DNA of 64,000 nt from Eledone cirrhosa (taxonomy: Eukaryota), in the NCBI GenBank assembly GCA_964016885.1, contig OZ024752.1, positions 29,202,001 to 29,266,000 on the forward strand, in the 5' to 3' direction. Of this stretch, positions 8,478 through 64,000 are shown in pieces (positions within the stretch are counted from its first letter, which is position 1; every line of letters starts with the position of its first letter). The notes beneath the pieces are model-generated. The model was not told the DNA's origin. It saw only the letters and a list, made by a program, of their open reading frames with translations, and made no database searches. Both the position numbers and the translations under genes were made by a program.

Positions 8478-10196
8478 ATAATAATAATGAAATTATTGTG
8501 TACAGTGCTCAGGTGCACTACAACTCATCAAAGGTGCAGTATAGTACATAGAATAACATACAAATGTCAGGGAGGTGAATAGTGTACGAGTTATGATATA
8601 CATGTGTGCGTGTGTATCATCATCATCATCATTTTACGTCCGCTTTTCCCTGCTTGCAAGGGTAGGACGGGAACTGATTCTGGCTTGATTTCTACAGCTG
8701 GATGCCCTCCCTAACACCAACCTCATTTACAGTGAGTGCTGCTCCACGACCACTTTTGCAGTGAAATAATATGGTCCCTATCATCTCATTTCTACAGCTG
8801 AGTAAACTGGAGCAATGTGAAATAAAGTGTCTTGCTCAAGGAAACAACACATCACCCGGTCTGAGAATTGAACTCACAACCTTTCGATTGCAAGGCCAAT
8901 GCTCTCACCACTAAGCCATGTGCCTCCATGGAGGGGGAATATAGTTGGCAAATCTCAGGAAGCATGGAGGTTTTAAAGGATGCCGTGTCTCGACAGCTAA
9001 TAACTGATGCAGGTAGTTTGTTCCATGCTTCAGCAACTCTGAGCGTTAAAAAATCTTTCCGAAAGTCATGGGGGATGTGCAGTTTTCTGACTTTGTTGGC
9101 ATGCCCACGTGTGTTAGACACATGGAACTCAAAAAGGTACTCAGGGTTGTTGTTGTCAAGATGGTTAATAATTTTGTGTGTATTTACCAAGTCAGTTGCC
9201 AGACGTCGGAGCTTCAATGTATCCATGCCCAGGGAAGCAAGGTGTTTAGAGTATGGTAGATGCCTGATGGAGGGTATTCGCTTGGTTGCACGTCTCTGAA
9301 CAGTTTCCAGGTGGTCAATGTTCTGAGCAAGATAGGGGTTCCTGACTGGTGATGCAAATTCTAAGTGTGGCAGCACCATAGCTATATACAGCTTTAAATA
9401 GATAGCTGGAGAGCGGCTGACAAAGGTCTTGCTGAGTGATGCTAAGACACCCTCGGCCTTCTTGATAATTTTAGAGACATGCTTCATCCAACGCAAATCG
9501 CTGTTGACAGTAATGCCCAGGTCACGTTCACAAGAGGACTTCTTGATATCAGTGTTGTGGAGGGAGTATGTGGACGCTGGATTTTTCCTCCCAAAATGCA
9601 TGGTGGTACACTTGTCCACAACCAGCTTCAGTTGCCAGTCTGTGATCCATTGCTGCATTGTGTCCATGTCTGATTGTAGGAAAGAGTTGTAGATTTCAGG
9701 ATCAGTCCTTTTGATTTCAAGGTACAGCTTGATATCATCTGCATATTTCAGTACCGTGGCATTCTGTAAGTTGGCATCTATGTCATTAATATATGCCACA
9801 AACAAAAGGGGACCAAGAACAGATCCCTGTGGTACACCAGATGACATCTCATATGGTGAAGAATGCTGTCCTAGAACCGTGACTACCTCTTTTCTGCTGA
9901 GCATGAAGGATTTCAACCAGTTAAAAAGATCATCCCTCACACCCATTGCAGAGAGTTTTGCCATAAGTCTTTTGTGTGGCACAGAATTGAAAGCTTTAGC
10001 AAAGTCATGATAAACAACATCCACCCATGAGCTGCCATCAGTGATCCGAGTGATGTCTTCAAGAAACTCGATAAGTTGATCACAGCAGCTGGATTTAGGG
10101 ATAAATCCAAATTGCGAGGGCCGGATAAGATAAGTCTGTGAGAGTTCCAGAAGTTCCAAAGTGTTTCTGTGACACAGGATCCCATCAGTTTGGCAA
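8478..10196 (-). mobile_element. 5'-truncated CR1-clade LINE (RT and 3' UTR), interrupted by a SINE
   Basis: RT motifs QFGF, DFAKAFNSVPH, GVPQGSVLGPLLF, YADD, ERDLGI; close similarity to 23140-24552; (ATT)n tail at 8478. Confidence 0.9.
8616..8927 (-). mobile_element. tRNA-derived SINE with RTE-type 3' tail, inserted in the CR1 3' end
   Basis: Minus-strand head GGAGGCACATGGCTTAGTGG...GAGTTCAATTC (pol III A/B boxes); tail CCCTTGCAAGCAGGGAAAAGCGGACGTAAAA(TGA)n; CR1 sequence resumes on both sides. Same head at 49282-49480 and 36972-37240 (+). Confidence 0.75.
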
Positions 10197-10559
10197 TATA
10201 TGTGTGTGTGTGTGTGTGTATATATATATGCGAGACAAACTACAACAGAAACACAAACCCTCCATCTCAATTTTACATAAGAACTGTGAAACTGGTAAAG
10301 TAAATAAATAGATATTCTTAAAAGACTCCAGTTGCATTTTCAATTGCTTTTCCTTATATATATATATAAGACAATGTCACTGGACTGAGATCTTTGGCGC
10401 TACGCAGTAATAGAGAAGACCCGCCTTGCAAAGCGAAACCTACAGCCAGTAGGCACCTCTTAACCATAAATACACCCCCATCCCACTACCCCTACCCCCA
10501 CCCATATCTACACCACCCCTTTCTCTGTAAAGTTATGTTGGTACCACAAAATCCAGTCC

Positions 10560-19709: not shown

Positions 19710-20367
19710 GTATGTTTTGTTTTGTTTTCATATTTCTAGTATAGAGAATGATCTAACTCAAAACATATATCTATCTTCCTATCATTATGATTTTGGCAGT
19801 ATCGGTGGAGGGTTGGACGCCATGCTTTCCATCATAGTTACGTCCCTTTACGATCTGAGTTCAAATCCTGTCGAGGTTAACTTTGCTTTTCATCCTTACG
19901 GGGTCGATAAAATAAAGTACCGGTAATACACTGGGTAATTGCTGGCCTTGTGCCAAAAGTAGAAATAATTATGATTAGACTATTATGTTAGGAAGGGCAT
20001 TCAGCTGTTAAAAAACCCAGCAAAAATACAGTTTGAGCAAGGTATGGTTCGGCCAACTGGCCAGACTTGTCTCATAACGTCGACGACTCATCTAACATAT
20101 GCAAATTTGAAAATAAACATTAAACAGTGATGATAATGGTGGTGGTGGTGGTGATGATGATGATAATCTCAAAACATATATCTATCTTTCTATCATTACA
20201 ATTCTACTTTTTCAGACTATTAACCTCATCTTTAGAGATGACAAATGTTTTAATGTTTACACCTGGAAGATGGACATGAAATGATGATGATGGTCTCTTT
20301 GATCTCTGATCATCATCAGCTGTTTTATTTTGAATGTGTACATTGTTTACATTCTGTGTAGAATGGG

Positions 20368-21585
20368 ATGGGTAGAAATAACAAAATTGCCATGGTGATA
20401 TCCATCGATGAAGTATGCGACAAAACTGGTCGATGTTCCAAAATAGAACATTGCCCAGAAAACCACATCTGCCATATTTGTACGGAACCCGAAAACTCGT
20501 TCCGTAATCGCTGGGTCGAATGTGGAACCTGTCACATCTCTGTCTGCCTTCAATGTGCCACAGGCTTCCGGAGGATCCCAGGCCAAAAAAAGAGACATCA
20601 TAATGCTATGATGGATGGAATATGGGAGATGGTCCAGCTAAAATCCTGGTCTTTTCAGTGCCTGGCCTGTGTGCCTGCCTCCACTAATGTTATTGAAAAA
20701 CAGCAACAAAAACCGATGACTATATCTTCCTCTACCATTGTTACTGAACAACAGCAAAAACCTATGACACTGGCTTCTGCTGCTATTCCTGTGGAAGAAC
20801 ATCAGAAACAACAATAACCCATGTCTTCCGCTCCCAGTACATCTCGACACCAACAACCTGCGACTGTGTCTTCCCCTACCATTCCCGTGGAGGAACATCA
20901 TCATCACCAACAACAACAACAGCAACAGCAGCAGCAACAACAACAACCGACCAGTACAGATTTTGCAGAATTGCAACTAATGATTTCTGCTTTAAGAAGG
21001 GAAGTAACAGGAATAAAGGCAAGCATTCGGGTAGGACCCCACAATGAGGGGTCTTATCGGAATGCCTTGCTAAAGAATCTCCCTGTACCTCTTGCTGTAT
21101 CTGGGCACACTGAGAAGACTGCGGAATCTGCTACCCATGAAGTAATTGCCATTGGGGTACCAGAGGACAAGGCTGATCTTCAGGCATTTGCTGCCAGCTC
21201 AGCCAAAGACCTAGGCTGTGTTCCCCCAAAGGGTGCTCTCCGCCTTGGTCGACCTGGTCCAAAACCCAGACTCATCAGGCTGTCTTTTTCGGATCCCGCT
21301 GAGGCAATCTCATACCATCTGGCCTCTGTTAAAGCTGGGCGTGAAAATCGGATTACCTTCCGAACACGCCCAGGCCTACCACCCCATGTACGTCCAAAGC
21401 TCCGTGATGCAGCTTCCTTGAATCAGAACTCAGCACAACATGAAAGTTTTAGTCTGCGTGATGATGGGCAGATCTGGAGGTTTGTTAAGGCTGGTGAAAC
21501 GTGGAAGAGAGATACCAGCTGGTCTGAGTGTGCTCTACCCACAATAACTGGCAATGAAAAAACTGCAACAACTCTGGGAAACTAA
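20368..21585 (+). pseudogene. CR1 ORF1 (Cys-rich PHD-like finger, Gln-rich repeats, coiled coil, ORF1-type C-terminus) with one premature stop
   Basis: ORFs 20368-20817 and 20821-21585 are in frame, separated by TAA where the neighbouring repeats read AAA (QQKPM); motifs IGVPED and LRLGRPGPKPRLIRLSF. Confidence 0.75.
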
Positions 21586-21641
21586 ACCAGAACAACCTGC
21601 CACCCTCTACACACCATCATAAACTGCAAGCAGGGTACAAA

Positions 21642-24401
21642 TTGTTGTCCTTAAATGCTCGCAGTTTATGCAACAAGATACATCTGTTTGACTCCTACGT
21701 CAGAAGCATCGACCCTGACTTCATCACAGTCATGGAAACATGGGCACATTCCTTACTCTGTGATGGGGTTTTCAGCATTACTAGGTACAACCTTTTCCGC
21801 AAGGACCGCATTCATCGCCGTGGTGGTGTGATGGTCTACGTTCGTTCAAACTTTTCGGTAATTCCTTGCGTTGATTTGAACGAATCACAGGAAGAAGTTT
21901 TTTTCTGTGACATACGTATGACCATGTCAACACTTCTGCTTGGTGTTGTTTATCTCCCCCCAAACTACCACCAGGACACCCAGCTTTGCGATATCCTCAG
22001 AGTTGGTGCCAAGAAAACAGCCACATATGTGGTTATTGCAGGTGACTTCAATCATTCTGAGATCGATTGGGAAACCTTTCGTTGGCCACAAGGTGCAAAC
22101 GATTTCCTTGAACTAGTGCTGGACTCAAACTGGTCACAAGTAGTCACCTCTCCAACAAGAGGTGACAACACTTTGGACCTGATCTTCACCACTACTCCTG
22201 AAGTGGTTATCAGTTGTACTACTGAGGAACCTCTAGGCAACTCTGATCATGCTATGATCATTGCCAATCTGGCTCTTGCGGGCAGCAACAAAAACCAGAG
22301 CCATCTCCAATCTGCTTGCTTTGATTGGAAGAAAGCAGATTGGAACTTGTACTGCACTGAGCTACAGTGCCCAAACTGGCATAAGATGTATAACTCTGGA
22401 GATGTGAACACTATACTCCAGAGCATCCTGGACTCAATATGGATAGCGTGTGCAGCATCGGTGCCACGTAAGCAGAAAAAAACCACCCCAAAAATGTAAT
22501 TTGGGAAACTTCAGCAGTCCAACTTGCCAGGAAAGAACGTCGGAACGCTGAACGGGAATATAAACTGCATAAATCAGATGCCAACAGAAAAAGCGGAATA
22601 AATCTTCTAACCATCTCAAGCAAGTGACAAAGAAGGCAGTGCTTGAATTTGAACAGTGCATAGCAACCAATCCTGACAGTAAGGTCTTCTGGAAATATGT
22701 TCATTCAAAGCAGAGACCTCACTCTCCAGTTGGTCCTCTTTGCAATCCCCACACAAGCCAGATCACTGACGATCCCAAAGAATGCGCAGAACTCATTGCT
22801 GAGTGCTATGCAAGTATTTTTACTGTTGAAAACCAGAATGTACCATCTCCACCATCTCTAACATCAAATTCCATAACAACTATGGAATTTACACCTGCAA
22901 TGTTGCGACGTCACCTTAAGAATAAGCGCAACTATGCCTCCCCTGGTCTTGATGGTGTTACATACCTGCTTCTCAAACGTGGCGGGTATTTCCTTTTGCG
23001 CCAGCTTTCTTTCTTCTTTCAATACTGTCTCAACAATGGTGCTACTCCGGAGCAGTGGAAAACTGCCAGTGTCATTCGCCTGTTCAAAAAGGGCAACCGC
23101 ATGTATATATCAACTATCGTCCAGTCAGTCTTACTAGCTGTATGGCCAAACTGATGGAATCCTGTGTCAGAGAAACACTTTGGAACTTCTGGAGCTCTCA
23201 CAGTCTTATCCGGCCCTCGCAATTTGGATTTATCCCCAACTCCAGCTGCTGTGATCAGCTTATCGAGTTCCTTGAAGACATCACCCGGATCACTGACAGC
23301 GGCTCATGGGTGGATGTTGTTTACCTTGACTTTGCTAAGGCTTTTAATTCTGTGCCACACAAAACACTTATGGCAAAACTCTCTGCAATGGGTGTGAAGG
23401 ATGATCTTTTCGACTGGTTGAAATCCTTCATGCTCAGCAGAAAAGAGGTAGTCACGGTTCTAGGACAGCATTCTTCACCATATGAGATGTCATCTGGTGT
23501 ACCACAGGGATCTGTTCTTGGTCCCCTTTTGTTTGTGGCATATATTAATGACATAGATGCCAACTTACAGAATGCCACGGTACTGAAATATGCAGATGAT
23601 ATCAAGCTGTACCTTGAAATCAAAAGGACTGATCCTGAAATCTACAACTCTTTCCTACAATCAGACCTGGACACAATGCAGCAATGGATCACAGACTGGC
23701 AACTGAAGCTGGCTGTGGACAAGTGTACCACCATGCATTTTGGGAGGAAAAATCCAGCGTCCACATACTCCCTCCACAACACTGATATCAAGAAGTCCTC
23801 TTGTGAACGTGACCTGGGCATTACTGTCAGCAGCGATTTACGTTGGACAAAGCATGTCTCTAAGATTGTCAAGAAAGCCGAGGGTGTCTTGGCATCACTC
23901 AGCAAGACCTTTGTTAGCCGCTCTCCAGCCATCTATTTAAAACTGTATACAGCTATGGTACGACCACACTTGGAATTCGCCTCATCAGTCTGGAACCCCT
24001 ATCTTGCTCAGAACATTGACCTCCTGGAAACTGTTCAGAGACGTGCAACCAAGCGCATACCCTCCATCAGACACCTACCATACTCTGAACGCCTTGCTTC
24101 CCTGGGCATGGATTCATTGAAGCTCCGACGTCTGGCAATGGACTTGGTAAATACCCACAAAGTTATTAACCATCTCGCCAATTGCAACCCTGAGCACCTT
24201 TTTGATCTCCATGTGTCTAACACACGTGGACATGCCTACAAAATCAGAAAACAGCACAGCTCCCATGACTTTTGTAAACATTTTTTCACGCTCAGAGTTG
24301 CTGAAGCATGGAACAAACTGCCTGCATCAGTTGTTAGCTGCCGAGACACTGCATCCTTTAAGACACTCATGCTTCCCGAAATACGCCAAAACTACACCTG
24401 A
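21642..24401 (+). pseudogene. CR1 ORF2 (APE endonuclease + RT), frameshifted
   Basis: LNARSL, ETW, GGVMVYV, GDFNH, LDLIF, SDH (APE); NYRPVSLTS, DFAKAFNSVPH, PQGSVLGP, YADD (RT); split into 21642-22499, 22624-23154, 23055-24401. Confidence 0.9.
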
Positions 24402-44856: not shown

Positions 44857-47619
44857 AACACAAACTTTAAAAAAACCCGACAACCACCTGATCACCTATA
44901 GATCAGGGGAGCACTCTAGTCAGATAGATTTTATCCTCATCAGAGGACGTGACAGATGGACGGTCGTAAACACAAAAGCCTTCCCTAGTGAGGAATGTAC
45001 ATCCCAACATAGCTTAGTTGTCAGCGACCTCACAGTCAGAACTAGACGAACCTGGAAACAGAGGCCAACCTGGAGAAGAAAGATCTGGAAGCTGAAAGAC
45101 CCCTCAACCAGTAACAGATTTAAAGATATTCTACTCAATGCCTACGATAGTAAAGAAGAACAGATAGAGACATTCAATGTAGAAGAGAACTGGGAGTTCC
45201 TAAAAAATAACTTACTAGAGGCGACAGATGAGGTCTGTGGCTGGAGTAAGACCTCAAGCAGGAGGAGAGTGACTTAGTGGTGGAACAATAAGGTAGATGA
45301 GGCAGTTAAGGCCAAAAGACAGGCATGGAAAGAATGGAAGAACGGGGGGAGCAGGGTACATTACATAGAGACCAAGAAGGAAGCTAGGTGACAAGTATAC
45401 TTAGTGAGGAGGGAAGCAGAGGATAGAAAATTCAAGCATGTTTTGCAACGTGAGGACCAGAAACAGGAGGTGTTTAAGATTGCGAGGCAGTGTGTCAGAG
45501 AGAATTGTGATGTCATTGGAGAGAAGTGTATCCAGAATGATAAAGGTGAGCTTGCCCTCACAAGTGCTGAGAAGAAAGATGCATGGAAGAGTCATTATGA
45601 TAGATTACTAAATGAGGAGAATGCATGGGAAGAAGAGACCCTACCCAAAGTAAACTCTATAGAGGGGCCAGCAGTACAAGTCAGCAGCAACGTAGTAAGT
45701 AAGGCAATCAAAGATATGAAGATGGGGAAGGCAACCGGTCCATCGGGTATAGCTGCCGAGATGCTGAAGGCATCTGGGTCTGAAGGTCACACTATAACCA
45801 CACGTATTGTTAACCAGGTAATACTAGAAGGTGTCATACCAAAAGATTGGTGCAGTAGCATCATTGTCAACTGCTACAAAGGTAAAGGTGATGCACTAGA
45901 TAGAGGAAACTATAGAGGTATAAAGCTGATGGACCAGGTCATGAAAGTAACAGAAAGTTATAGCACAGTTCATTAGGGACCGGGTGAAACTAGACGAGAT
46001 GCAATTTGGGTTTGTACCATGAAGAGGCACCACTGATGCCCTCTTCCTTGTCACGCAGTTACAGGAAAAGTACCTAGCTAAAAGTAAGCCACTCTATCTG
46101 GCATTTGTCGACCTTGAGAAAGCCTTTGACAGAGTTCCACGTGCTGTAATCTGGTGGGCTCTTAGAAAACTAGGAGTAGATGAATGGCTTGTGAAAGCGG
46201 TACAAGCCATGTATAGGGGAGCAGTCAGCAAAGTTAGGATTAGCAATGAGTATAGCGAGGAATTTAGCGTACAGGTTGGGGTCCACCAGGGCTCTGTTCT
46301 TAGCCCCCTCCTGTTCATCATAGTCCTGCAGGCAATAACGGAGGAGTTTAAGACCGGATGCCCATGGGAACTCCTGTATGCTGATGACCTCGCACTTATA
46401 GCTGAATCTATGGTAGAACTAGAGAAGAAATTCCAAACTTGGAAGCAGGGACTAGAAAGAAAGGGTCTCAAAGTCAACATGACAAAGACTAAGGTCCTTG
46501 TAAGTAGACGAGAAAACAGAACCCAGATCCCCTCAGGGAAATGGCTTTGCTCAGTATGTAGGAAAGGTGTAGATAGGAACTCCATTCTCTGCCCCAAATG
46601 CAAACAATGGGTACACAAGAGATGTAGCGGGATCTTAGGAAGCTTAATTAAGAATGTAGGCTTCACATGCAGCAGCTGTGCTGGGACAGCAAGCAGCAAA
46701 CAGCCACAGGAAACAAGTACCACCAATCTCTGGGAGGGCTCTGTAGAAACAGTAGACAGCTTCTGCTACCTAGGTGACCGAATTAGCAGTGGAGGTGGGT
46801 GTTCAGAAAGTACAATAACTAGGGTAAGAACGGGATGGAAGAAGTTTAGGGAACTACTACCCCTGCTAGCTGCAAAAGGCTTCTCCCTCAAAATGAAAGC
46901 CAGACTGTATGATGCGTGTATCCGGACAGCGATGTTGCATGGTAGTGAGGCCTGGGCGCTGAAGGTGGAAGACTTACGTAGATTAGAGAGAAACGAAGCC
47001 TGCATGCTCCGATGGATGTGTAATAGTAATATACGCGAACGACAAAGCATAAATGAATTGAGAGAGAGACTGAGCATAAGAGGAATCAAATGCTGTGTGC
47101 AGGAAAGGCGGTTGTGTTGGTATGGACATGTGATGCGTATGAAGGATGACAGCTGCATAAAAAGGTGCAGAACACTAGAAGTCAATGGAAACCGCGGAGT
47201 GGGGATACCCAAGATGACCTGGGATGAGGTGATAAAAGCCGACCTTACCCAATTACACCTCTCAAAGGCGATGACACACGACCGTGACCTCTGGTGGCAC
47301 GCAGTAATACAGAGTACCCGACCTCCCATGGGTACAAGCTGAAGCATATAGACAATATGCCCCCACAGCCCCCACCGCAAGGTGGTCGTGGAGGTGCCAC
47401 GGCAAAAAAGCACCCAGCCCACACTGTAAAGTGGACGTGTAGGCCCAGCACTCACTGTAAATGAGGTTGGTGTTAGGAAGGGCATCCAGCTGTAGAAATC
47501 AAGCCAAATCAGTTCCTGTATGAGCAAGGCATGGTCAGCCGACCAGACATTGCCCACAACAGGACAACCCGTCTAACCCATGCTAGCGTGGAAGAACGGA
47601 CGTAAAACGGTGATGATGA
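44857..47619 (+). mobile_element. 5'-truncated decayed RTE LINE (APE C-terminus, RT, PHD, 3' UTR) in an EME1 intron
   Basis: ORF pieces 45404-45976 and 46191-47342 (HQGSVLSPLLF, LLYADD, C4HC3 finger), several stops, (TGA)n tail; related to the 4165-8424 element. Confidence 0.9.
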
Positions 47620-49480: not shown

Positions 49481-51103
49481 GAGAGGGGTTTCTTGTACAT
49501 CTGGGGAAAGTTAGATACCCACTTGACGATGACTTCTCCAGGCCAAAAGCTACAGTTATAAATAAGTTGACTGAAAGTATCAATAGAAGATGTCTAAATC
49601 TGTCTCAAGCCCAAAGGCTTATCAGGCCTAGTTTCAATGGCATTAAGTGACTGAAGGTATCTAAATTTCCTTGGATGTTTTGATTTTAAAGCACAATGTC
49701 TTCCAGTTAGTTGGTTGGCAGTGATGGCCAAGTCACTGCCCATCTTCTCCTGAACTCCTCTCACCTGCTCCAGAGCCAGCAAAGGCTCTTTCTGCTGCTT
49801 CCCTCAACCTGCCAGCAGCTATCTTTCTCTACTGTCCTTCTATTCCTAGAGCTGCAAGAATCATCTACACAGACTGGACCAAGAAACCTATGCAGCCAAC
49901 CTTAACTGGAAACAGCCAAGCCTCCCACTTTATTTTTATATTGTTGGATCAGGTTCTGTTGTTTGGTAGTCTTCCTCTCTGGGGCCTCCTCATGGGACCA
50001 TTAGTTCAATTAGAATTATCTTCATCTCCTTGGACCATATGACAATATATGACTGAAAGGATGTTTGGATAAGCTAGAGAAAGTGTAGTTTCCTTCCCAA
50101 ATAATCACTCATCTCCCATCATTTTTCTGTTTGCAGGAAAGAGTCTCTTTTTAATTAATTCTATAATAGCTTGCAATTAAACAGAACAAGCAACAGCCTA
50201 ATTTACAATGCCGTTATAACTCTTCCCTTCTAATGAGTATTTTATGAAATGAAGCAAATCAATTTCTGTAGATCAATCCCCTTTTGTTTGCCTTCTGACC
50301 CCTATCCTTTCTATCTGTGAATGAGCTGACAGGTGTGAGCTAGTGAGAGAATTTAAAAGGTATAATTAAATGTGTTTAACTGGTAATTATAGTTTGCTGC
50401 TATTGGAGTTGTCCTATAATTCATTAGTAAACAATGAAATGCTTACAATCTTTTTACAGGCAAATATTCAGTTTATTTAAGCCTTTCATTACTGAATTTC
50501 TAATGAAAGGCACTGTCTATGTCATTAACCATTTCATTACCATATTTCCACTGAAAGACACTGCTTATGTCATTAACCATTTCATTATTGTATTTCTACT
50601 GAAACACACTGCTTATGTCTTTTAATTAATTTTTTAAATAATCAGGAATTTGGAGGAATTTAATAAAACAATTAAGTTTTTCATTAGTAAGTTGATATTA
50701 AAAACATTACTTAGATTAGAGTGTATACTCATTATGTTGAATTATATAGGAGTTAATTATTAGAGGTCGTTTCCCAGTGCTCCTCACAATATTGTTATCT
50801 TTTGCTCTGGTAGCAATTCATTTGTCTACCCCTTTCGGCTGCCTTTTGTTGTATGTGGTCCTAGATGTGTGTATTACCTGCTTGTGTGTGTTTTTTTCTT
50901 TTCCCATTTTTTCATTTCATTCATTCATGTCCGCTTTTCCCTGTTTGCAAGGCTCTTTTTTAATTATTTTTAAGGTTATATATACAACTCTTCAGTAAAT
51001 AAAATTTTGTAATTAGATTTTTACAAAATACATCATTGATGTAAATATATTTAGATCAAAAGTTTTCTTTTCTAAACATATTTTTCTCAAACATCACTTT
51101 CAG

Positions 51104-51278
51104 GAAGGATCGTTTACAGTCTGAATTTTCCTTTCATAATGAGAAAGGAAATAACAGTTGTGATTCATCTGATACACAAATGATGTGGAAGTTACAACTC
51201 CAACAATTTAAGAATATTAGTTCTGATGTTGCAAATGCCATTGTTTATCAATATCCTACACCAAAATCTTTGTATGAG
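51104..51278 (+). CDS. EME1: EME1 exon (first HhH region)
   Basis: tttcAG|G-KDRLQSEFSF...MWKLQLQQFKNISSDVANAIVYQYPTPKSLYE|GT; cf. [26 protein letters not shown]. Confidence 0.92.
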
Positions 51279-52340
51279 GTTAGTATCAAACAGCTTTATT
51301 TGTCAATATCTATTGCTCCTAGTGTTCTATATTTCTATGTCTCAAACATAATACTGTATCTGGTATTTGATATATATTAAACTGTAAACGTGGTTGGTGT
51401 TAGGAAGAGCATCCAGCCGTAGAAAACCTGCCAGACAGTCCCATATGAGCGAGACGACCAATCTTGCCTCAAGTGGGGCAATTCCCGTCTAAACCCATGC
51501 TAGCATGGAAGATAGACGTTAAATGATGATGATGATGATGATGATGATTAAACATGGTGCCATAACAAATCTGAACAGCATTCGTCTTGTCTATTAGATA
51601 GTCTAATAATGCTGACAGTAGAGAGTTAGAGTTAAGTTTTATCATATCTGGTTTTAAACTTTAACTCTTTTGTCACCTTATTTCAAATGAAAGACACTGC
51701 ATATATGTTTCAATTAATTTAAAATAATTTAATCAAGTAACTAACTCTTTCATTAGTAAACTGACATTTAAAAGATGTCTTACCCCTATAGCATTTAAAC
51801 CGGCCATATCCAGCCAGAATTCTCTCGCCTCTTCCTATTCAAACCGGCTGTAACCGGCCACTCATACTTATGTTAAGGTATTGTTCTAAAAGTAAATAAT
51901 ATCAAAATCTCATAGCTTCAATGCCTTTACCGAGTAAATATAGAGTAATGTAAATGATAAAAGGTTAAATAAAATTATGATGGAAGTATATAATATCGAT
52001 ATAAACATTTTAAAATGAGCAGTTTTGTATCTTAGAACCAGGGGCAGTTTCAGGTGGTTTGGTATTACCAGGTTCAACTTAACCATGTCTTTCAGAGTCA
52101 GTAGAAAAAGCCCCCAAAACAAAAAAAAAAACAAACTAACATTGGGATTAAATAATTTTATTTTCTCTTTCCTTTACAATCCCTCCCCCCCAAAAAAAGA
52201 ACTTAAGAAAGCAGTCAGTTCCCAGATGAATTTTTAAGACTTATTTGTTAATTAGTATTTTTGTAATTTGTGTGTATTTTCCATTTATTTGCTGCTTTTC
52301 ATTTTGTATTCCCTATTTATAAAAACATTTTTTTTCTCAG

Positions 52341-52397
52341 ACGTACCAAAATTGCTCTTCAGAGAAAGAAGGTATTAAAATACTTGAAAATATTATG
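52341..52397 (+). CDS. EME1: EME1 exon
   Basis: ttctcAG|TYQNCSSEKEGIKILENIM|GT. Confidence 0.88.
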
Positions 52398-52689
52398 GTA
52401 AATATAAACCCAAATATTTCTTTTTTTTTTTTTAACTCTTTAACATTTAAACTGGTCGTATCTGGCCAGAATTCTCTCACTTCTTTCTGTTGTAATCAGT
52501 TGCTCATACTTATATTAAGGTATTGTTCCCAAAATAAATAATATCAAAATCTCATAGATTTGATATTATGTGAGATAATTATGAGAGATTCACACTTTAC
52601 TATGAAAATACAATAGTAACTATAGAGTAATGGAAATGCTAAAGGATTAAAGATTATTATTCAATTATTAAAATGTTGCCTTGTATTCA

Positions 52690-53020
52690 GAATTAGCTAG
52701 ACAGCACACAAACAAATGAATCTGTCTTGGAAGAGATTGGTGCCAATCAACAGTCAGTTGGTTGAAACAGTAAGGACGAAGAAACTTCAGTATTTTGGTC
52801 ATGTCATTAGGGTTCAAAATTTGACTACCAATATCCTTAAAGGATGAATACAAGAGAAAAGGGCCAGGGGATGGCAGGAAAGGAGATGGACAGATGATAT
52901 TAAGGAATGGACAAGAAGAAGTTTGGTGGAATGTACAGCAATGGCAAGAGACAGGAATATATGGAAAACGCTGGACCATTATTCCCGACCCTCAGTTATG
53001 AGGATAGGATGAGGCTAGGC
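52690..53020 (+). mobile_element. Decayed RTE/BovB-like LINE 3' fragment
   Basis: KLQYFGHVIR...RRWTDDIKEWT...ARDRNIW in broken frames. Confidence 0.6.
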
Positions 53021-53606
53021 TAGGCCTTGTATTTAACTAATTTGAATTAATGTAGATGAGTACCTTCAGAAATACATAAATAACTGCAGGAGATCTTTAC
53101 ATTTAACACACCAGTTATTTCTTAAGTTGCAGTATAATCTATATATTAGAATATAATATATTTGGTTATATAGGGTGTAGTATGACATATTGGGAGTATG
53201 TTATATTAATTTTTTATTAGGTAACTTTTATCTTTGTTTCACTATTTTACTGGTTATTGCAACAGATGAAAGGTGGACCCAATTACAAGATAGCTTTGAT
53301 TCTTTGATGGTCTGTGTTCTTGGTAAAAAGAAAGGGTATTAATTTGTATGACACAATGCAGTAACTCACCATCTGCTTATTCTTTCATGATCAATGATCA
53401 AATTGGTGATCAGCCCTATTAATACTGATAATGAAGAAATGAGATTTGTCACATTCATGTCTTTTCCAATGGCCCTTCCTGCAATCATCATTTTACATCC
53501 ACTTTTTATGCTGACATGAGTTGGATGTGTTTTTATTCAGTTACTACACTCCTAAATGGGTTTGAGGACCATGTCTCACATGTTTAATTTTTTTTGCATA
53601 GTTTCT

Positions 53607-54012
53607 AAAGCTGGTCCTTTCTAGTACCAACTATATCACAGCACTAGATGGGTCTCTTAAGCTGGTCCTTTCTAGTGCCAACCACTTCACAGAACCAGAC
53701 AGGTTTCTAAGGCTGGTCCTTTCTAGTACCAACTATATCACTGCACTAGATGGGTCTCTTAAGTTGGTCCTTTCTAGTACCAACCACTTCACAGAACCAG
53801 ACAGGTTTCTAAGGCTGGTCCTTTCTAGTACCAACCACTTCACAATATTAGACAGGTTTCTGAATAAGGCTGGTCCTTTCTAGTGCCAACCACTTCACAG
53901 CACTAGACAGGTTTCTAAAGGTGGTCCTTTCTAGTAGCAACCACTTTACAACACTATACAGGTTTCTAAAGGTGGTCTTTCTAGTGCCAACCACTTCACA
54001 GCACTAGACAGA
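53607..54012. repeat. ~51-bp minisatellite, 8 units, derived from the SINE/RTE-tail core
   Basis: Unit GCTGGTCCTTTCTAGTACCAACCACTTCACAG...; resembles GCTGGATGCCCTTCCTAACACCAACCACTTTACAG. Confidence 0.8.
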
Positions 54013-55060
54013 TTTTCACATCCTCAACAAGGCTAGAGAAATTGTCTTTTGTGCTGCAAGAATAGACTCCTCTTTACTCTGTTGAAAAAAGAGAGGATGA
54101 TGGGGGGGGGGGGGTGTAAAAGAAGAGAGATAGTGATAGTTACATGCTGGTTGTTAGTAAGGAGATTGAATAGGAAGCAGCATGATGAGGTAGCAATAGA
54201 GTGATAAGGCGGTGGGGAGCTGGAAGCGAGACAGGTGATGATGAGTGTGACAGATGTCAATGTAGTGTCATATGGAAGAAGATTGATTGATATCTAGCTG
54301 TAAAGAATGGTGATTGTAGAGGTGTTGAATATGGTCAGATATAATAGTCTTCATCATCATCATCATCACTGACTAATGTCTATTCCTCCCCCCACACACA
54401 CACTAGCATGAGTTAGATGGGTTGTCCTGTTGTGAGATCAGATGACCATGTTTTGCTCTTACAGAACAGTTTCTGGCTGATTTCTATGGCTGGATGCCCT
54501 TCCTAACACCAACTACATTTACAGTGTGTACAGGGTGCTTTTTATCGTGGCACCAAAACGACCGCTTTACAGTGTGGACTGGGTGCCTTTTACCGTGGCA
54601 CCAAAACAACAACTCTACAGTGTGGACTGGGCACTTTTTATCATGGCACCAAATCAACCACTTTACAGTGTTGACTGGGCACATTTTGTTGTGCCACTAA
54701 CATAACCACTCTACAGTGTGGACTGGGGGCATTTTCTCATGACACCAACACGACCAATCTATAGTGTGGATTGAGGGAATTTTCTCATGACGTCAACACG
54801 ACCACTCTACAGTGTGGACTGGTGGTCTGGGGGAATTTTCTCATGACACCAATACAACCACTCTATACTGTGGCCTGGTGCTTTTTGTCATGATACCAAC
54901 ATGGCCATTTTACAGTGTTGACTGTTGATAGAGATATATTGTATGCTGTAGAAGTAATGTTGAACTGTTAATAACACATATTAAATATATGTCTGTCTTC
55001 TTAATATAAATACATTGCACTTAACTTTTTTCTTCTAAGTTGTTCATTTTGATTTTTCAG

Positions 55061-55171
55061 GTAAGAAGGAATGCTGGTGTGTTGCAGTCAGCCAGACGAA
55101 TAGGGAAAGAAAGTGCACGGAGAATTTACCAGCTTATGACATCAAAAGACCCAAACTTGTTATTAAAATAA
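55061..55171 (+). CDS. EME1: EME1 last coding exon (second HhH)
   Basis: tttcAG|VRRNAGVLQSARRIGKESARRIYQLMTSKDPNLLLK*; cf. [23 protein letters not shown]. Confidence 0.93.
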   Translation, partial: VRRNAGVLQSARRIGKESARRIYQLMTSKDPNLLLK

Positions 55172-55352
55172 ATCCTTTTTAGACATATTTTCTCATTGCT
55201 TTTAAAAATTAAATGCATAGTTAATTATAATAGTTTTCTAGACTTTAAAACTGTTGTCGTTACTTAGCTCTAGTCAGTCATGTGTGTGTGTGTGTAAATT
55301 TACTACAAAAAGTCTGGAAAGCTGTATCTGATGATGATATATATATAAATGT

Positions 55353-55385
<33 letters not shown>

Positions 55386-55701
55386 TTCGTTTAACGTCCA
55401 TCTTCCACGCAAGCATGGGTGAGACGGGAGTTGTTCCACTTGAGGCAAGGTAGGCGGGTGACCGTGTCTCGCTCATATAGGACTATCTGGCAGGTTTTCT
55501 ACGGCTGGATGCCCTTCCTAACACCAACCACATTTACATTGTGGAACTGGGAACTTTTTACCGTGTTACCTACACGACCATATTACAGCGTGGATTTAAA
55601 AAAAAATTTTTTATATGTATATATATATATATAAATGTGTGTGTGTTTATATATATATATAAATGTGTATATATATAAATATATATATATATATAAATGT
55701 G

Positions 55702-55733
<32 letters not shown>

Positions 55734-55734
55734 A

Positions 55735-55765
<31 letters not shown>

Positions 55766-55981
55766 CAAACACACACACACATATATATATATATATACAA
55801 ATTTATATATATATATATATACAAATTTATATATATATATATACACACATATATATATTTATATATATATATATATATATGTATTGAAATTTCCGTTGAA
55901 AACAGAAAAGGTCATAGAAGTGAAGAGTGCTCTATGTAAGTATCAGAGCAAAATTTAATGTATAAAAATCAATACAATATA

Positions 55982-56059
55982 ATTACCTCATTACCAGAGG
56001 TTTCCCGAATGAGGCGAATACGAAAGAAACGTCCTCATTCGTTCGTCAGACGAGGCAAT
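55982..56059 (-). ncRNA. Putative type I hammerhead ribozyme (left-arm copy)
   Basis: Exact reverse complement of 58509-58586. Confidence 0.65.
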
Positions 56060-56272
56060 ATAAAACATGGGTAAATACTTGGAAAGTCTCATCAAGAAAA
56101 GCAAAAAAAAACAAAAAAGATATAGACAAATGAATTAGAATATGAAATATATAATCTTTCAAGAAATATAGTTAGGTGTGTGTATATGTATGTATATACG
56201 CTCACAGATGTGCATATATGTGTATGCACATATGTATACGTATAGTGAAAAAGTGTGCGTAAATATATAATT

Positions 56273-56452
56273 GTTTCTACTTTAGGCACAAGGCCAGCAA
56301 TTACCCAGTGCATTACTGGTACTTTATTTTATCGACCCCGTAAGGATGAAAAGCAAAGTCAACCTCGGCGGGATTTGAACTCAGATTGTAAAGGGACGTA
56401 ACTATGCTGTAAAGCATGGCGTCCGACCCTCTACCGATACTGCCAATCCACC
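56273..56452 (-). mobile_element. tRNA-derived SINE (family 1) inserted in the left palindrome arm only
   Basis: TSD ATATAATT at 56265-56272 and 56453-56460; the empty site is visible in the right arm near 58290. Confidence 0.9.
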
Positions 56453-58508
56453 ATATAATTTAGGGCAAATGTATCTGTATGTCTGTAATCTACAGACAGA
56501 ATAGATACATCATAAGAATATGAAGGCACGCGCATAAACACACCTACACACACGCACACTTAGATGCGGAAGTAAAAGAGGTAAGGGAGTGTAATAATTC
56601 AAGGAAAGTATCAATCTCGATATATTTATAAAAATGGAACAATAATTTAGAAAGAAAAAATTAAAGAAAAGACAAACATACATACACACACACACATATC
56701 TCACAAAAGAAACGCAAAAATAAACATGCTTATATACACACGCACACTTACACATCCATACGTTCGATACGTACACACACACACACACACATACACATAC
56801 TTACACTCACGCATATTGACCTGTTTGCATGCACACGCATAAAAATGAGTAAGTAAAAAAAGGGGAAGAAGAAAAAAGGAACAAAACATAAAACCTAGAT
56901 GTAAAAAACACGGATATAAAGACATACACATACGCATACATAAAAAATAATAAAAATAAAGATAAAAAAATATATCTGGAGTGGAAAACGCAAATGACAT
57001 GTATAATCAGTTAGTGAAGGAAATAGGGAAGTAAAAAATGGAAAGTGAAGATATTAGGTAAGTGAATCGGAGAATAAAAGGGGGGGGGGGTTATTGGTGG
57101 ATGTGAAGTAAAAAAAAAAATAATAAAATAAAAAAAATAATAAAAATAATAATATATAAATAAAAATAAATGAAATTAATGATAAGGATAAAAATGAAAG
57201 TAAATCAGAAAGGGTAATTATAAAGAGAATAATAAGAGTTTATGGAGGATAAGTATCTGAAAGTGTGTTCAGTTTATATGAGCTCATATAAACTGAACAC
57301 ATTTTCAGATACTTATCCTCCATAAACTCTTATTATTCTCTTTATAATTACCCTTTCTGATTTACTTTCATTTTTATCCTTATCATTAATTTCATTTATT
57401 TTAATTTTAATTTTTATTTATATATTATTATTTTATTTTTTTTCTTTTATTATTATTACTTTTTTTAATTTTTACTTCACATCCACCAATAACCCCCCCC
57501 CCCCCTTTATTCTCCGATTCACTTACCTAATATCTTCACTTTCCATTTTTTACTTCCCTATTTCCTTCACTAACTGATTATACATGTCATTTGCGTTTTC
57601 CACTCCAGATATATTTTTTTATCTTTATTTTTATTATTTTTTATTTTTGCGCAGCCAATCTTACAATTTTATAATTTTATATTTGTACTTACATATACAC
57701 AAGTTTTTTTACACACTGTATCAATGTGGCTGAACGCCTTAATGTGTGTATACTTTCTATATATGTACATGAGCGACTATGTATGTGCGCGCGCGTGCGT
57801 GTATATATATATATATGCGTATGTGTATGTGTCTCTATATCCGTGTTTTTTACATCTAGGTTTTATGTTTTGTTCCTTTTTTCTTCTCCCCCTTTTTTTA
57901 CCTACTCATTTTTATGCGTGTGCATGCAAACAGGTCAATATGCGTGAGTGTAAGTATGTGTGTGTGTGTGTGTGTGTACGTATCGAACGTATGGATGTGT
58001 AAGTGTGCGTGTGTATATAAGCATGTTTATTTTTGCGTTTCTTTTGTGAGATATACGTGTGTGTGTATGTATGTTTGTCTTCTTTTCTTTAATTTTTTCT
58101 TTCTAAATTATTGTTCCATTTTTATAAATATATCGAGATTGATACTTTCCTTTAATTATTACACTCCCTTACCTCTTTTACTTCCGCATCTAAGTGTGCG
58201 TGTGTGTAGGTGTGTTTATGCGCGTGCCTTCATATTCTTATGATGTATCTATTCTGTCTGTAGATTACAGACATACAGATACATTTACCCTAAATTATAT
58301 ATTTACGCACACTTTTTCACTATACGTATACATATGTGCATACACATATATGCACATCTGTGAGCGTATATACATACATATACACACATCTAACTATATT
58401 TCTTGAAAGATTATTATATATTTCATATTCTAATTCATTTGTCTATATCTTTTTTGTTTTTTTTTGCTTTTCTTGATGAGACTTTCCAAGTATTTACCCA
58501 TGTTTTAT

Positions 58509-58586
58509 ATTGCCTCGTCTGACGAACGAATGAGGACGTTTCTTTCGTATTCGCCTCATTCGGGAAACCTCTGGTAATGAGGTAAT
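58509..58586 (+). ncRNA. Putative type I hammerhead ribozyme
   Basis: Stem I ATTGCCTCGT/ATGAGGTAAT (10 bp, 2 GU); core CUGACGA; stem II CGAATGAGG/CCTCATTCG; GAAA; short stem III CC-UCU-GG; GUA cleavage triplet ending at 58576; A.G mismatch at the base of stem II. Confidence 0.68.
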
Positions 58587-58610
58587 TATATTGTATTGAT
58601 TTTTATACAT

Positions 58611-58663
<53 letters not shown>

Positions 58664-60308
58664 ATTTGTATATATATTTATATACGATATTAATAAATGG
58701 AAACTATATTTATAAGACCATATTTATTTCATTATACATATTTCAAGGATACCATGTTAAATTATGGCATGCCTTCATCATATAAAATACAATATATACC
58801 AGTTTTATAAATAAACATTGACGTACCCTTTCAAAATGCGACCGTTACTTTTGGAAGACATCAGGATAGTGGTTTGTTTATTTTAGTAAGTCGTTGTGTT
58901 AAGGAGAAGGAAAAAGACGGGGAGAGATAAATAAAGAAAAAGAAGAAAGAAAAAAGAAAACAGAGAAAAACAACAGAGATATCAAACCACCAGACAGAAA
59001 AAAATCAAGAGAGAGAAATATAGAGATAGAGAGAGGGGGAGAGAACGAAAACCTTAAGTCATGTCATATTAAGTTGAGTTAACAATTGAGATGAAATGAA
59101 TAAATAAAATTAGAAATATTAATATTCATGAATGGAATATACATATATAATATGAGAAATTAATCATTGTTTAGTTATGATTAGATATTTAGTTTAAAAA
59201 TTGAGATCAATATATAAAAAATTGGAATTTAAACTTTACGAAATATATATATTGCTAGAGAAATTACCTATCATATAGCACGTACATATACGCAAAAATA
59301 CATAAATATATATATATACACACACACTCAGAAAATACACACTATATCTACTTCCGCATATAATATATACATACAAAACATAAATGATTTTTTTTATTAT
59401 TACTGCTATATATTCCTTGTGTTATTAAATAAAATTTTTTTAGTATATATATATATAAATATATAGGATTAACTTTCATGCATTTATGGCTGTTAAATTA
59501 TGCATATCAGCAATCAAATTGCATGGGTACACATGTACATGTACACACACAATTCTTACATATACATATATAAACGTGTGTGTGCATCTTCACCCAATTG
59601 GTAAACATGCGTCACTCATGCATATATACAGACAGACATATATTCATAAAAATGCATACAACACATGCATATGTATGTTAATACACATACATACATACGT
59701 AGTCGTATAGAGATAAGTATACATCAATATATTACATAGTACAATTGAGTATATAAAATACAAAAGGATTATATATTGGAAATATAATTATATCAATATA
59801 ACCTAAAAACAAATGAATTCTACAAATGTCAAAATATTAAAATATTTTTAAATATTATAGAATATTTTAAGTTAATAGATTTAGTATAGAAATTTATCTT
59901 ACGTATATTTTATTCAAGAAATTGAAAGGACAAACTTTTGAAAATTATGAGAAGCTATCAGAATAAAAATAAACCTAATAAAAAAGTAAATAAAATATTA
60001 TATCAATATAACTTAAAAAACAAAAGAATTCTACAAATATCAAAATATTAAAATATTTTAAAATATTATAGAATATTTTAAGTTAAAATAATATGTTTAA
60101 TATATTTAGTATAGAAATTTATCTTATGTATATTTTACTCAAGATATTGAAAGGATAAACTTTTCTAGAATAGTTTATTATATTTATATTTATATTTAGG
60201 AAGAAAATTTATTTATACTTGAGTACTTAATGAAAATGAAAAAGGTGAAGGAATCTAATGATTTATCGACAGGTTTCATATATTAACCAAATTACTTAAT
60301 TTATTATA

Positions 60309-62480
60309 CTACATTTTAAATTTATATTCATATTTAAACATTGAGTTCAATCTATGTCTGCAGCAACTGAATAAATTATTCCTTAAATTAAGGGAATTTT
60401 TGGTCTTTAATATAAAGAATATTTCCTCTATACAAAGATCGCAATTTTCTGAAGAGGAATTAAAAGGAGTAGCTTTTGAAATAATATTCCAAATCAGCGA
60501 ATATTCAACATTATCTTGTTTTAGGTCCCATAATAGGCTAGATAGCGAAGTTGAAGATTTTTTGTTTGGATCTGTAAAAGAATTTTTATGATTATTGAAG
60601 CGGGATTTAAACTCTGTGGAGGTGGAACCGACATAATTAAATGAATTTAAATTCGTTTTAACATTACAATTATAAACTACATTTTTAGCTAAGCAGTTGT
60701 TATTTAACGGACATTTGGATTTATTTCTACAGTTACAATTATTCGATTGAATATTGCTTGGGTTATTATTGGTATTTTGGTTAGGTTTTAAATTTCTATT
60801 AATTCTATTAATATTTTGCGCTAAATTTTTGGTGGAAGAGTAAGTTAATTTTATAGTATGTCTATTAAAAATTGAGTAGTATCTATGTGTTCTAGGGAAG
60901 CGTTTGTCAAGAGCTTTAAAGAATAGTTTAGCAATAGGGGTTTTAATATTTAGTGAGAAAGGAGGAGCGAAACATAATATATTCCTAGTTTTTTCGGCTT
61001 TCAGAATTATTGTAATATTTTCTATTATAGTTGTTAAAATTGATACCATAATTAAAGTTGTTATTATTTTGGTTAGTTTTTATATTATTATTATTATCGA
61101 TGTATTTAATTTTATTTCTATACCCAGCTCTACCTAACGCTTCGTTGTAATACTGCGCTTTTTCATCAAATATATTCTTATTCGATGAAATTCTTGAAAT
61201 TCTTTCTTGTACAGAGTTCACTATAGTATTTTTAACGGATCTGGGGGTGATTAGAGTTAAAATTGACATAATTTAAGTTCTCATTTAGTTTGAAATGGAT
61301 AATGAAGACATGTGTTGAGATTTAGTGTTACATCTAGAAAATTGACTATTTTATGGCTATTCTCTATTTCTACTTTTAGATTAAGGTAATTAAAAAATTG
61401 TATAATTTGTTTTCTTTTTCTATTTAGTTCACAGCTATTATTTTCTATAAGTAAAAGCATGTCGTCACGATATAAGCCTCCGGTTACACCTGGTATTTTT
61501 CTATGTAGAGAATTAATTATAAATAGGCCCACAAGGTCCGTTACCTGAGCTGAGTCTGAAGATCCCATAGTTATGTCGAAATTATTATTTCTATCTGCCC
61601 TAGTCCAGAGTTGGTTATTAAATTCTATTAATGTTTTCCATGCCGATAATATAATGTGCATTTCATTGCTAGTTAGGTCTGTATGTTTAAATGCGTAAGT
61701 TAGTGCCTTATTCAGTAGATTAGGAGTGATAGATGAGTAGTAGTTAACAATATCCAACTGAATAAACTTATTATTATAGTTATATTTAATTTCTTTAAAC
61801 CAATCGATAACTTCACTAGTCCCTTTCCATAATTTTAAGTAAGATAAATTAGGTAAATTCTTAATTTGTTGTATTATTCTGTCTCGAATATTTTTGCTAA
61901 GTCTGCCCAGGTCAGATTTAGATAGTGCAATTAATCTGACTGGTAAATCATTTTCAAAGTTTCTTTTATGATCCTTCATATTAATCTTAGGTTTCCTTGG
62001 CATGAAGGGTTGTGCATTATACAAGAAGCATCTGTATTCAGTTTTTCAAGTTCGTCCTTATTTGCTACTTTGTATTTCTTCCTTAGTTCCTTCAATATAA
62101 GGTCGTTATAAATGTCCTTTTGTATTCCGTAAAGATTATTGGTTTTGTCTGACTTGACTAGAATTTTCTCCGTTTTCTCCAAGTTTTCAATATTATCCTT
62201 AATATCTCTTAAGTAATCTTGGCCTTTGAAGTTGTTTTTGAATTTGATGCTTTGGATGATAGATATGATATCATTTTCAAAATCCATTAGTAGTTTGTTG
62301 GGGGGGGGGGGGGGGGGGGGGAGTTTTTTTAGATTTGAAGATTTTATCCAGATTTGAAACATTTTCATTTAGATTAGATTTATCGAAGTGGAAAGCATGC
62401 CACCTGATTCTTCTTCTTAATATCGTATATTTACTCCAAATACTTGTCGAGTGCTTTAAATTTAAATAGAACTTTTGCAT
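60309..62480 (-). mobile_element. Decayed Penelope-like retroelement ORF (RT + GIY-YIG), probably Naiad-type
   Basis: RRIRWHAFHF, VKSDKT, DIVNYYSSI, MGSSDSAQV, LYRDD, VNFLDV (PLE RT); CNCRNKSKCPLNNNC, VVY...YVGST...FKSRFNNH, CDLCIEE, CRH (GIY-YIG); four frameshifts. Confidence 0.88.
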
Positions 62481-62517
62481 ATATATTTATATATATATTT
62501 ATATATATTTATATATA

Positions 62518-62598
<81 letters not shown>

Positions 62599-62614
62599 AT
62601 ATATATATATATAT

Positions 62615-62729
62615 AAGTTGAAAAAAAATGAAAACGAAATTTCATTTCTCACTCTTAGTATGGCACTTACTTAAATGTAAGTATGTATGTATACGTACAT
62701 ACATATATGTATACAGACGTACAGTAGCA

Positions 62730-62770
<41 letters not shown>

Positions 62771-63338
62771 GCATACAGGTACACATACATATATGCACGC
62801 ATCAGTTTAGCCGACGTTTATTATAACGCAGCTTTGTTCGCTTGTTTGTCAACAAACCGAACAGCCTGAATTTATGCCATACGGTGTTAAGGCAACCACG
62901 TCACCTTTTTGTTCAACACTGACACAGGAACGATGTACTAGTTTCAAGCTTGTTAGCTATCATCAGCACCGTTTACCCATCTGCCAGATAGTTGAACGTT
63001 CGAAAGTATATACTTTCCTTATGAAAATTAACGGCTGAGCAGCCTAATTTGCATATTGAGTGAGTTAAATCGGTCAGGCATACCGAAAACGACAAGTTGA
63101 AAAAAAATGAAAACGAAATTTCATTTCTCACTCTTAGTATGGCACTTACTTAAATGTAAGTATGTATGTATACGTACATACATATATGTATACAGACGTA
63201 CAGTAGCAAACAAGCGAACAAACATACATACATACATATATGTATACAGACGTACAGTGACAAACAAGCGAACAAAGCTGCGTTATAATAAACGTCGGCT
63301 AAACTGATGCGTGCATATATGTATGTGTACCTGTATGC

Positions 63339-63397
<59 letters not shown>

Positions 63398-63434
63398 TGC
63401 TACTGTACGTCTGTATACATATATGTATGTACGT

Positions 63435-63441
<7 letters not shown>
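62615..63441. repeat. Compound direct + inverted duplication
   Basis: Direct repeat 62615-62729 = 63094-63208; inverted repeat 62686-62851 vs 63258-63441. Confidence 0.85.
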
Positions 63442-63518
<77 letters not shown>

Positions 63519-63606
63519 ATTTATATATATATATATATTTATATATATAAATATATATATTTATATATTATATATATATTTATATATATATATATTTATA
63601 TATATA

Positions 63607-63674
<68 letters not shown>

Positions 63675-63675
<1 letters not shown>

Positions 63676-64000
63676 CATCATCATCATCATCATCATCATT
63701 TTACGTCCGCTTTTCCCTGCTTGCAAGGGTGGGACGGGTCTTATTCAGCACAGCATCTCTCCACTCGTCACGGTCCCTCGTCATCTCCACCGTGAGCTTC
63801 AATGATCTGAGGTCTGTTCTCACCACCTCCGCCCATGTTTTTCGTGGTCTACCTCTACTACGTCTTCCTTCAACTGGCATTTCCTGGCACTTCTTCACCC
63901 ATCGGTCATCCTCCATGCGCATCACATGTCCATACCACCTCAGTCTCCTCTCCCGTACACTACATTCTATCCCTCTCAGACACAGTTTCTCTCTCAACAC
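63675..64000 (-). mobile_element. 3' end of an RTE LINE (continues beyond the window)
   Basis: [14 protein letters not shown]...RGRPRKTW...[12 protein letters not shown], followed directly by a (GAT)n tail. Confidence 0.88.

Follow-up and report, generated by a model that had tools for sequence, protein, structure and literature searches.

Penelope-like elements (PLEs) of the Hydra clade, which are defined in section 11 of Craig et al. (2021, PMC8557442) by the motif set RWK, DKT, CxCx5C, CxxC, and CxH, are described in the same paper as having (TA)n targets, hammerheads, and inverted 5′-truncated copies in which a tail is often found at one end only. For instance, its Files S1 and S2 give Penelope-13_HM, a Hydra-clade entry of Repbase, as carrying a hammerhead on each strand, and for Octopus bimaculoides the paper records a Hydra-clade element that has one. 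A 2014 study had already reported PLE hammerheads paired on opposite strands (PMC4209133), and PMC8557442 treats the way in which PLEs come to insert in inverted orientation as an open question. A PLE from the anole is reported to cut and extend both strands, with a protein predicted to be a dimer and with two RT start sites that define a tail; in vitro, the start site did not differ between strands (PMC11167929).

Here we analyse a 64,000-nt stretch of the Eledone cirrhosa genome, referred to below as the window, which contains an imperfect 2.7-kb palindrome at 55881-58612. In our reading, to which we give a probability of about 0.9, the palindrome is one insertion of an autonomous Hydra-clade PLE into (TA)n, made of two 5′-truncated copies placed head to head, each with a pseudo-LTR hammerhead motif, and it likely arose from both target ends priming at two fixed RNA sites. 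Its parts are as follows.

55612-55880: (TA)n-rich target, left side, a repeat tract
55881-57284, minus strand: left arm, a 5′-truncated copy of the same PLE family as the right arm, with tail
55881-55955, minus strand: tail of the left arm, before (TA)n
55928-55950, minus strand: predicted 7-bp hairpin in the tail, a candidate protein-binding site
55982-56059, minus strand: hammerhead motif of the left arm, identical to that of the right arm, predicted cut between 55992 and 55991
56273-56452: 180-bp dispersed-repeat insertion in the left arm, a later event, 93% match to 19793-19972
57281-57284: arm junction, self-complementary AGCT, a 4-nt microhomology common to both arms
57281-57325, plus strand: end of the PLE ORF (final 14 codons with the stop codon), whose minus-strand counterpart is at 57240-57284
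57281-58612, plus strand: right arm, a 5′-truncated Hydra-clade PLE copy with the last codons, about 1.2 kb of 3′ UTR, and the hammerhead
58509-58586, plus strand: type I hammerhead motif of the right arm, predicted cut 58576/58577
58612-58684: (TA)n target, right side, a repeat tract

Over 1,131 aligned bases, 12 substitutions separate the arms (about 1% divergence), and there are 11 gap runs, among them the 180-bp insertion that the left arm acquired, with its 8-bp duplication (56265-72 and 56453-60), and its loss of about 170 bp of sequence present in the right arm; because of these differences, the palindrome is not an assembly fold-back. As the initial annotation proposed, it is a head-to-head insertion, the arms being inverted copies of one PLE family joined at AGCT. 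Both begin at the identical element position, 14 codons before the stop of the PLE ORF, and they share three variants, each of which is found in at most 1 of 24 other copies. The right arm terminates at what we call site 1, about 35 nt beyond the hammerhead cut and without a tail, and the left arm at site 2, about 111 nt beyond it. The earlier statement that both hammerheads lie about 25 nt from the arm ends is thus correct for the right arm, counting from stem I, and fails for the left arm, which continues for about 75 nt more through the tail to 55881.

A transcript of the palindrome would be 99% paired over more than 1.1 kb and might be acted on by editing or small-RNA pathways. A second palindrome, at 1981-2943, has 216-bp arms that are 100% complementary and ends at a (TA)n tract; no hammerhead in it passed a descriptor scan of the whole window. 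At 58680-58860, the end of another dispersed repeat adjoins the (TA)n tract (inverted pairs of this repeat occur in loci L085 and L142), and a degenerate hammerhead-like core lies beside it at 58864 on the minus strand. The window also holds LINE fragments at 4673-7585, 8852-10339, 20818-24401, and 45392-47572 (Pfam identifies APE endonuclease and RT, and a PHD finger in one of them) and satellite arrays of 48-51 bp at 11862, 39088, 53601, and 54510.

The right end of the palindrome has 1,916 candidate matches in the 3.0-Gb genome (96-100% identity among the 41 matches listed), and an exact 29-mer of the family has 1,105 genomic matches compared with 0 for the control; of the first 100 29-mer matches listed, 24 belong to divergent pairs spaced by no more than 10 kb. 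Solo and tandem copies are both common. Copies of the family have either of two end points, about 35 or about 112 nt beyond the cut, where (TA)n takes over, and public contigs from one study, possibly of the assembly's own sample and so possibly not independent, show the same two ends running into (TA)n. Since the ends fall past the cut site and not at it, the term "ribozyme-terminated" is not supported for these copies. Between the two end sites, a 7-bp hairpin is predicted in the window tail and in L142, L145, and L148, which belong to sister families. A motif that looks similar by eye occurs in a published coral element, Hydra-2_Amil, at its 3′ end.

How the two kinds of end are combined was examined in two sets of loci. 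In the first, one tailed and one short end could be told apart cleanly in ten head-to-head insertions, that of the window among them; L031 and L096 departed somewhat from this pattern but resembled it, and both ends were short in L032/L033. The second set took every divergent pair within 10 kb among the matches listed for the hammerhead pattern and the 29-mer, leaving out L035, which had already been seen, and one convergent pair; L150 was known beforehand. One arm ended about 35 nt and the other about 100-112 nt past the cut in 18 of 20 head-to-head pairs, and none of the 20 had two tails (P = 1.7e-4 under independent ends). The remaining two, L144 and L132 (the latter possibly two insertions), had two site-1 ends and are, with L032/L033, the exceptions to the one-tail rule. 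Arm lengths vary from less than 0.1 kb to 3.6 kb and are unequal within a pair, the tailed arm being longer in L133, L135, L139, and L140, and the tail-less arm in L134, L136, L138, and L141 as well as in L035, L036, L081, L082, L087, L099, and L100; the arms of L037 and L137 are symmetric. Pair junctions show overlaps of 1-16 nt or short templated inserts. That one end of each type is a rule of insertion we infer from these genomic counts, and the counts favour priming from both broken ends at two fixed RNA sites, with the cDNAs joined afterwards.

The alternative that survives best, which we nevertheless consider unlikely, is that a single cDNA snaps back at AGCT, copies itself, and becomes joined at site 1 to the opposite target end by TA microhomology. 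Such a process would explain the absence of two-tail pairs, and the window locus is well suited to it, given that both 1.33-kb arms begin at the same base with a self-complementary 4-mer and carry the same three private variants; L037 and L137 are also symmetric. However, a copy-back arm can neither exceed the length of its template nor gain a tail that its template lacks, and the eleven loci named above have a tail-less arm that is the longer one. Because snap-back cannot give a longer tail-less arm, two priming events joined at the cDNA ends are the better account of the family. For the window itself, the common start base, the AGCT overlap, and the private variants fit one template molecule, through either twin run-off or snap-back, and equal arms with private variants agree with the second just as well as with twin priming. 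Snap-back is thus tenable at this one locus, where we still hold it to be the less probable course, and not as a rule for the family.

Returning to priming from both ends, we are inclined to think, with somewhat more belief than doubt, that PLE insertion is obligately two-ended and asymmetric, a dimer on one RNA priming two (TA)n ends at sites flanking the tail hairpin, so that each head-to-head insertion receives exactly one tail. The RT/GIY-YIG protein, probably a dimer, would bind RNA of tandem copies near the hairpin and cut both strands of (TA)n, after which the two DNA ends would prime at different points beyond the hammerhead cut site, one at about 112 nt and the other at about 35 nt. 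Synthesis of each cDNA would end early, and the two would then probably be joined by microhomology end-joining; at the window locus, both would end at one base, owing either to one broken RNA or to snap-back of one cDNA. The template RNA would be uncleaved at the hammerhead, because every copy spans the cut. The insertion is mostly an ordinary one, and it is the pairing of one long with one short end that likely reveals how the element inserts, since the one-tail rule, with either arm being the longer, connects inverted PLE insertions with the pair of RT start sites observed in vitro. If this is true, the thousands of such pairs in the genome would be a fossil read-out of a step of PLE retrotransposition, and the tail hairpin would be an RT-binding element.

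The nature of the source element was established from 20 loci extended from the arm end and 20 more picked by the 5′ part of the ORF. Across the extended loci, the arms are variably 5′-truncated at scattered points and form nested 5′ extensions of one 3.7-kb coding element. Ten of the 20 loci extended from the arm end reach the arm start, and all ten run on into GIY-YIG coding sequence; the upstream sequence is common to the ten and encodes the end of the GIY-YIG domain. The adjacency of genomic copies to a PLE ORF, suggested initially as a check, was thus found, and the proposed tie between a type I hammerhead and a PLE is upheld, the arms being the end of a coding Hydra-clade element. A full unit consists, in order, of hammerhead, tail, 5′ UTR, ORF, 1.2-kb 3′ UTR, and hammerhead, with tandem cut-to-cut lengths of 3,643-3,712 bp; in tandem copies, the tail runs on into the 5′ UTR, and the ATG lies 229 nt past the cut. 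Locus L092 has an intact ORF of 712 aa and L097 an open frame of 716 aa, the other copies having mostly broken ORFs. The family is young, with intact ORFs, and offers a direct substrate for testing two-site priming.

Two neighbouring elements bear on the proposal of the initial annotation that the palindrome is a non-coding, retrozyme-like unit.

60309-62470, minus strand: neighbour PLE of another Hydra-type family, broken, with RT before EN, DKT, CxCx5C, and several broken frames
62925-62975, within 62616-63430, minus strand: a different type I hammerhead with a palindromic stem III and U.U at 10.1/11.1, Rfam HH9 E = 2

According to that proposal, a non-autonomous unit terminated by ribozymes would have been mobilised in trans, for example by the neighbour PLE. 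The window arms do hold almost no coding sequence, and animal non-LTR retrozymes with type I hammerheads and an origin in PLE pseudo-LTRs are described in a preprint (bioRxiv 10.64898/2026.07.22.740005); moreover, a true retrozyme-like tandem family lies 4.4 kb away. We nevertheless regard this explanation as very improbable, given that the arms begin inside the ORF, that longer copies are nested 5′ extensions of the 3.7-kb coding element with scattered truncation points, that no short tandem monomer was found in the 40 extended loci, that copy ends miss the cut site, and that the neighbour PLE has no DNA in common with the arm beyond simple repeats. The term "non-coding" is set aside in view of the ten loci that enter the GIY-YIG ORF, the intact ORFs, and the position of the palindrome centre in the last codons; a retrozyme identity was likewise rejected, since the unit is 3.6-3.7 kb long and coding, as opposed to the short non-coding monomers of retrozymes with one hammerhead each. 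The neighbour had been taken for a Naiad-type enzyme 1.7 kb away. In Naiads, the GIY-YIG EN is N-terminal and a canonical hammerhead is absent (PMC8557442), and the motif is DKA; in the palindrome family as in the neighbour, the EN is C-terminal and the motif is DKT. The neighbour is thus Hydra-type, and a Naiad mobiliser was dismissed. Its protein is 27-43% identical to that of the palindrome family, and at locus L039 a relative of it (75-88% protein identity) lies directly upstream of a palindrome-family copy. The unit at 62616-63430, which also has an inverted part, is likely the true non-LTR retrozyme of the window: its family repeats in tandem with periods of about 420-466 bp, which leave no room for an RT, and includes four hammerheads in L050 and nine in L044. 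Least probable of all is that the palindrome is an assembly artefact or a foldback DNA transposon of the kind with long terminal inverted repeats; this would account for the long inverted arms and the TA at both ends but is contradicted by the variable and unequal arm lengths, the unequal outer ends, the common solo and tandem copies, the 1% divergence between arms of which one took a later insertion, and the RT/EN ORF and the 5′-truncation series.

The encoded protein contains the motifs RWK, DKT, YRDD, CxCx5C, YVG, CxxC, and CxH. It has 888 relatives at E <= 1e-30, and in an alignment of 78 of the 150 relatives listed, key residues are 89-100% conserved, with two exceptions: RWK keeps its K in 43%, R being a frequent replacement, and DKT its T in 76%, with S there otherwise. 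Pfam searches with the intact protein and with the ORF fragments of the window, and a phmmer search of PDB sequences with the protein, returned nothing relevant, and Pfam searches on 79 members of the homologue set found GIY-YIG in 7 and RVT_1 in 4. The predicted structure (pLDDT 94) matches telomerase and other RTs, with telomerase RTs taking 6 of the top 10 ranks for the whole model and DRT9 and retron RTs the rest. The identification as an RT and EN rests on homologues, motifs, and predicted fold, the EN being assigned by motif and homologues. As for the clade, we found a single ORF with RT followed by a C-terminal GIY-YIG, the RWK and DKT motifs, a CxCx5C linker, and CxxC and CxH in the EN, together with (TA)n insertion, 5′ truncation, tandem pseudo-LTRs, inverted copies, and a tail at one end. 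Judged by these sequence features, the family belongs to the Hydra clade, its likeness to Hydra-1_Obim being one seen by eye.

With respect to the hammerhead, stem I, the CUGACGA core, stem II, GAAA, a short stem III, and UA are all in place at 58509-58586, as first annotated, and direct comparison bears out the identical minus-strand copy; the type I core CUGANGA / GAAA / UH is present, with three helices. The minimum free energy structure of the 78-mer is a hammerhead-compatible fold (-24.9 kcal/mol), in which pair probabilities are mostly above 0.8 in stems I and II and about 0.25 in stem III. Against shuffles, its folding energy gives z = -2.2, with 7 of 200 shuffles folding equally well; since the antisense strand reaches much the same score (z = -2.5), energy by itself lends weak support to a hammerhead. 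The number of copies is a different matter: 5,424 genomic sites, spanning several sister subfamilies, match a core pattern that includes the long stem II and stem III, compared with 3 for the reversed control, which puts the motif far beyond chance. The Rfam check initially suggested came back negative, as a scan of 50000-64000 gave no hammerhead match at either copy at E <= 10; its matches, none of which reached the gathering score, were to microRNA models and fell on the palindrome centre and on TA repeats. That Rfam misses 5,000-plus hammerheads of this type matters for repeat annotation. The whole-window descriptor scan found three hammerheads, namely, the palindrome pair and the unrelated one at 62966 on the minus strand.

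The 9-bp stem II noted in the window is indeed a perfect helix; however, it depends on an A-to-G variant absent from most family copies, and the unbroken helix is a minority variant of a stem II that in the family is long and in two parts, with a loop of 11-15 nt. The canonical 10.1-11.1 pair is replaced in the window by A.G. Decay of this copy as its cause was considered and rejected, since the position is unpaired in 23 of 28 related hammerheads (paired in 5) and T.T stands there in many published Hydra hammerheads (File S2, PMC8557442).

Covariation was assessed in 28 distinct hammerheads of four subfamilies, comprising 27 from the 30 loci returned and the window copy. In stems I and II, 86% of cells are paired, and 46 cells are changed on both sides, a count that covers about four related subfamilies and includes six subfamily-C rows one column out of register for stem I; the search pattern left stem III and the core no freedom to vary. 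None of 500 shuffles reached the observed value and slid controls were 33-49% paired, but two of the five measures, those counting pairs or types, were no higher than in shuffles. The other check put forward at the outset thus came out positive, with compensatory changes present in stems I and II across the genomic copies.

The suspicion that the monomer may have low activity gains support from predicted folds. Stem II has a predicted probability of at most 0.13 in the nine well-formed family copies folded from five loci (a tenth anchor match is a fragment), and majority family copies are predicted to form competing hairpins as monomers. Loop III (UCU) lacks palindromic symmetry, and a dimer stem III would accordingly hold three mismatches. 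Related minimal PLE hammerheads are reported to cleave poorly in vitro (PMC4209133), and the anole PLE hammerhead is described as cutting only with protein, and as protein-assisted and dispensable in vitro (PMC11167929). The hammerhead of our family would, on a slightly favourable view, trim tandem transcripts to unit length, slowly or with protein help. The window copies are probably inert at their own locus, as they have no same-strand partner and read-through RNA would pair each with its antisense copy over all 78 of 78 bases.

In summary, the motif is real, and what we describe is a new family in a known clade, with a known type of insertion. As a ribozyme find, the window motif is ordinary; its useful part is mechanistic. 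What is new is the family itself, with the long two-part form of its stem II, and the one-tail rule as counted here, and a literature search conducted mostly without subscription journals found no paper on this PLE family or on a counted one-tail rule. Compared with non-LTR retrozymes, as characterised in the preprint cited above, the type I hammerhead, short stem III, and PLE ancestry are alike, but those are short non-coding tandem monomers, whereas the window arms are the truncated end of a coding element. With the Hydra clade as presented by Craig et al. (PMC8557442), the family shares RT followed by GIY-YIG, the RWK/DKT/CxCx5C/CxxC/CxH motifs, (TA)n targets, and a 3′ hammerhead with a stem III of 3-4 bp. 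It differs in hammerhead sequence from the elements published there, in its long two-part stem II with an 11-15 nt loop, and in size, with a unit of 3.6-3.7 kb and a 1.2-kb 3′ UTR when most Hydra families in that paper are below 3 kb. The nearest member listed is Hydra-1_Obim, whose shown parts our protein follows closely by eye; it is entered as "no pLTR", unlike the tandem pseudo-LTRs found here. With respect to Penelope-13_HM as given there, the window arms differ in that both are truncated to the 3′ UTR and have the same start base. Poseidon_Ac (PAc) of the green anole belongs to a different clade, and in what Frangieh et al. (2024, PMC11167929) report of its inverted insertions we found no pairing rule; its start sites are inside the ORF, whereas our tail lies in the 5′ UTR and is about 75 nt long instead of the typical 30-40. 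Nevertheless, in both systems the target is AT-rich, insertions span the uncleaved ribozyme, and two fixed ends define a tail downstream of the hammerhead.
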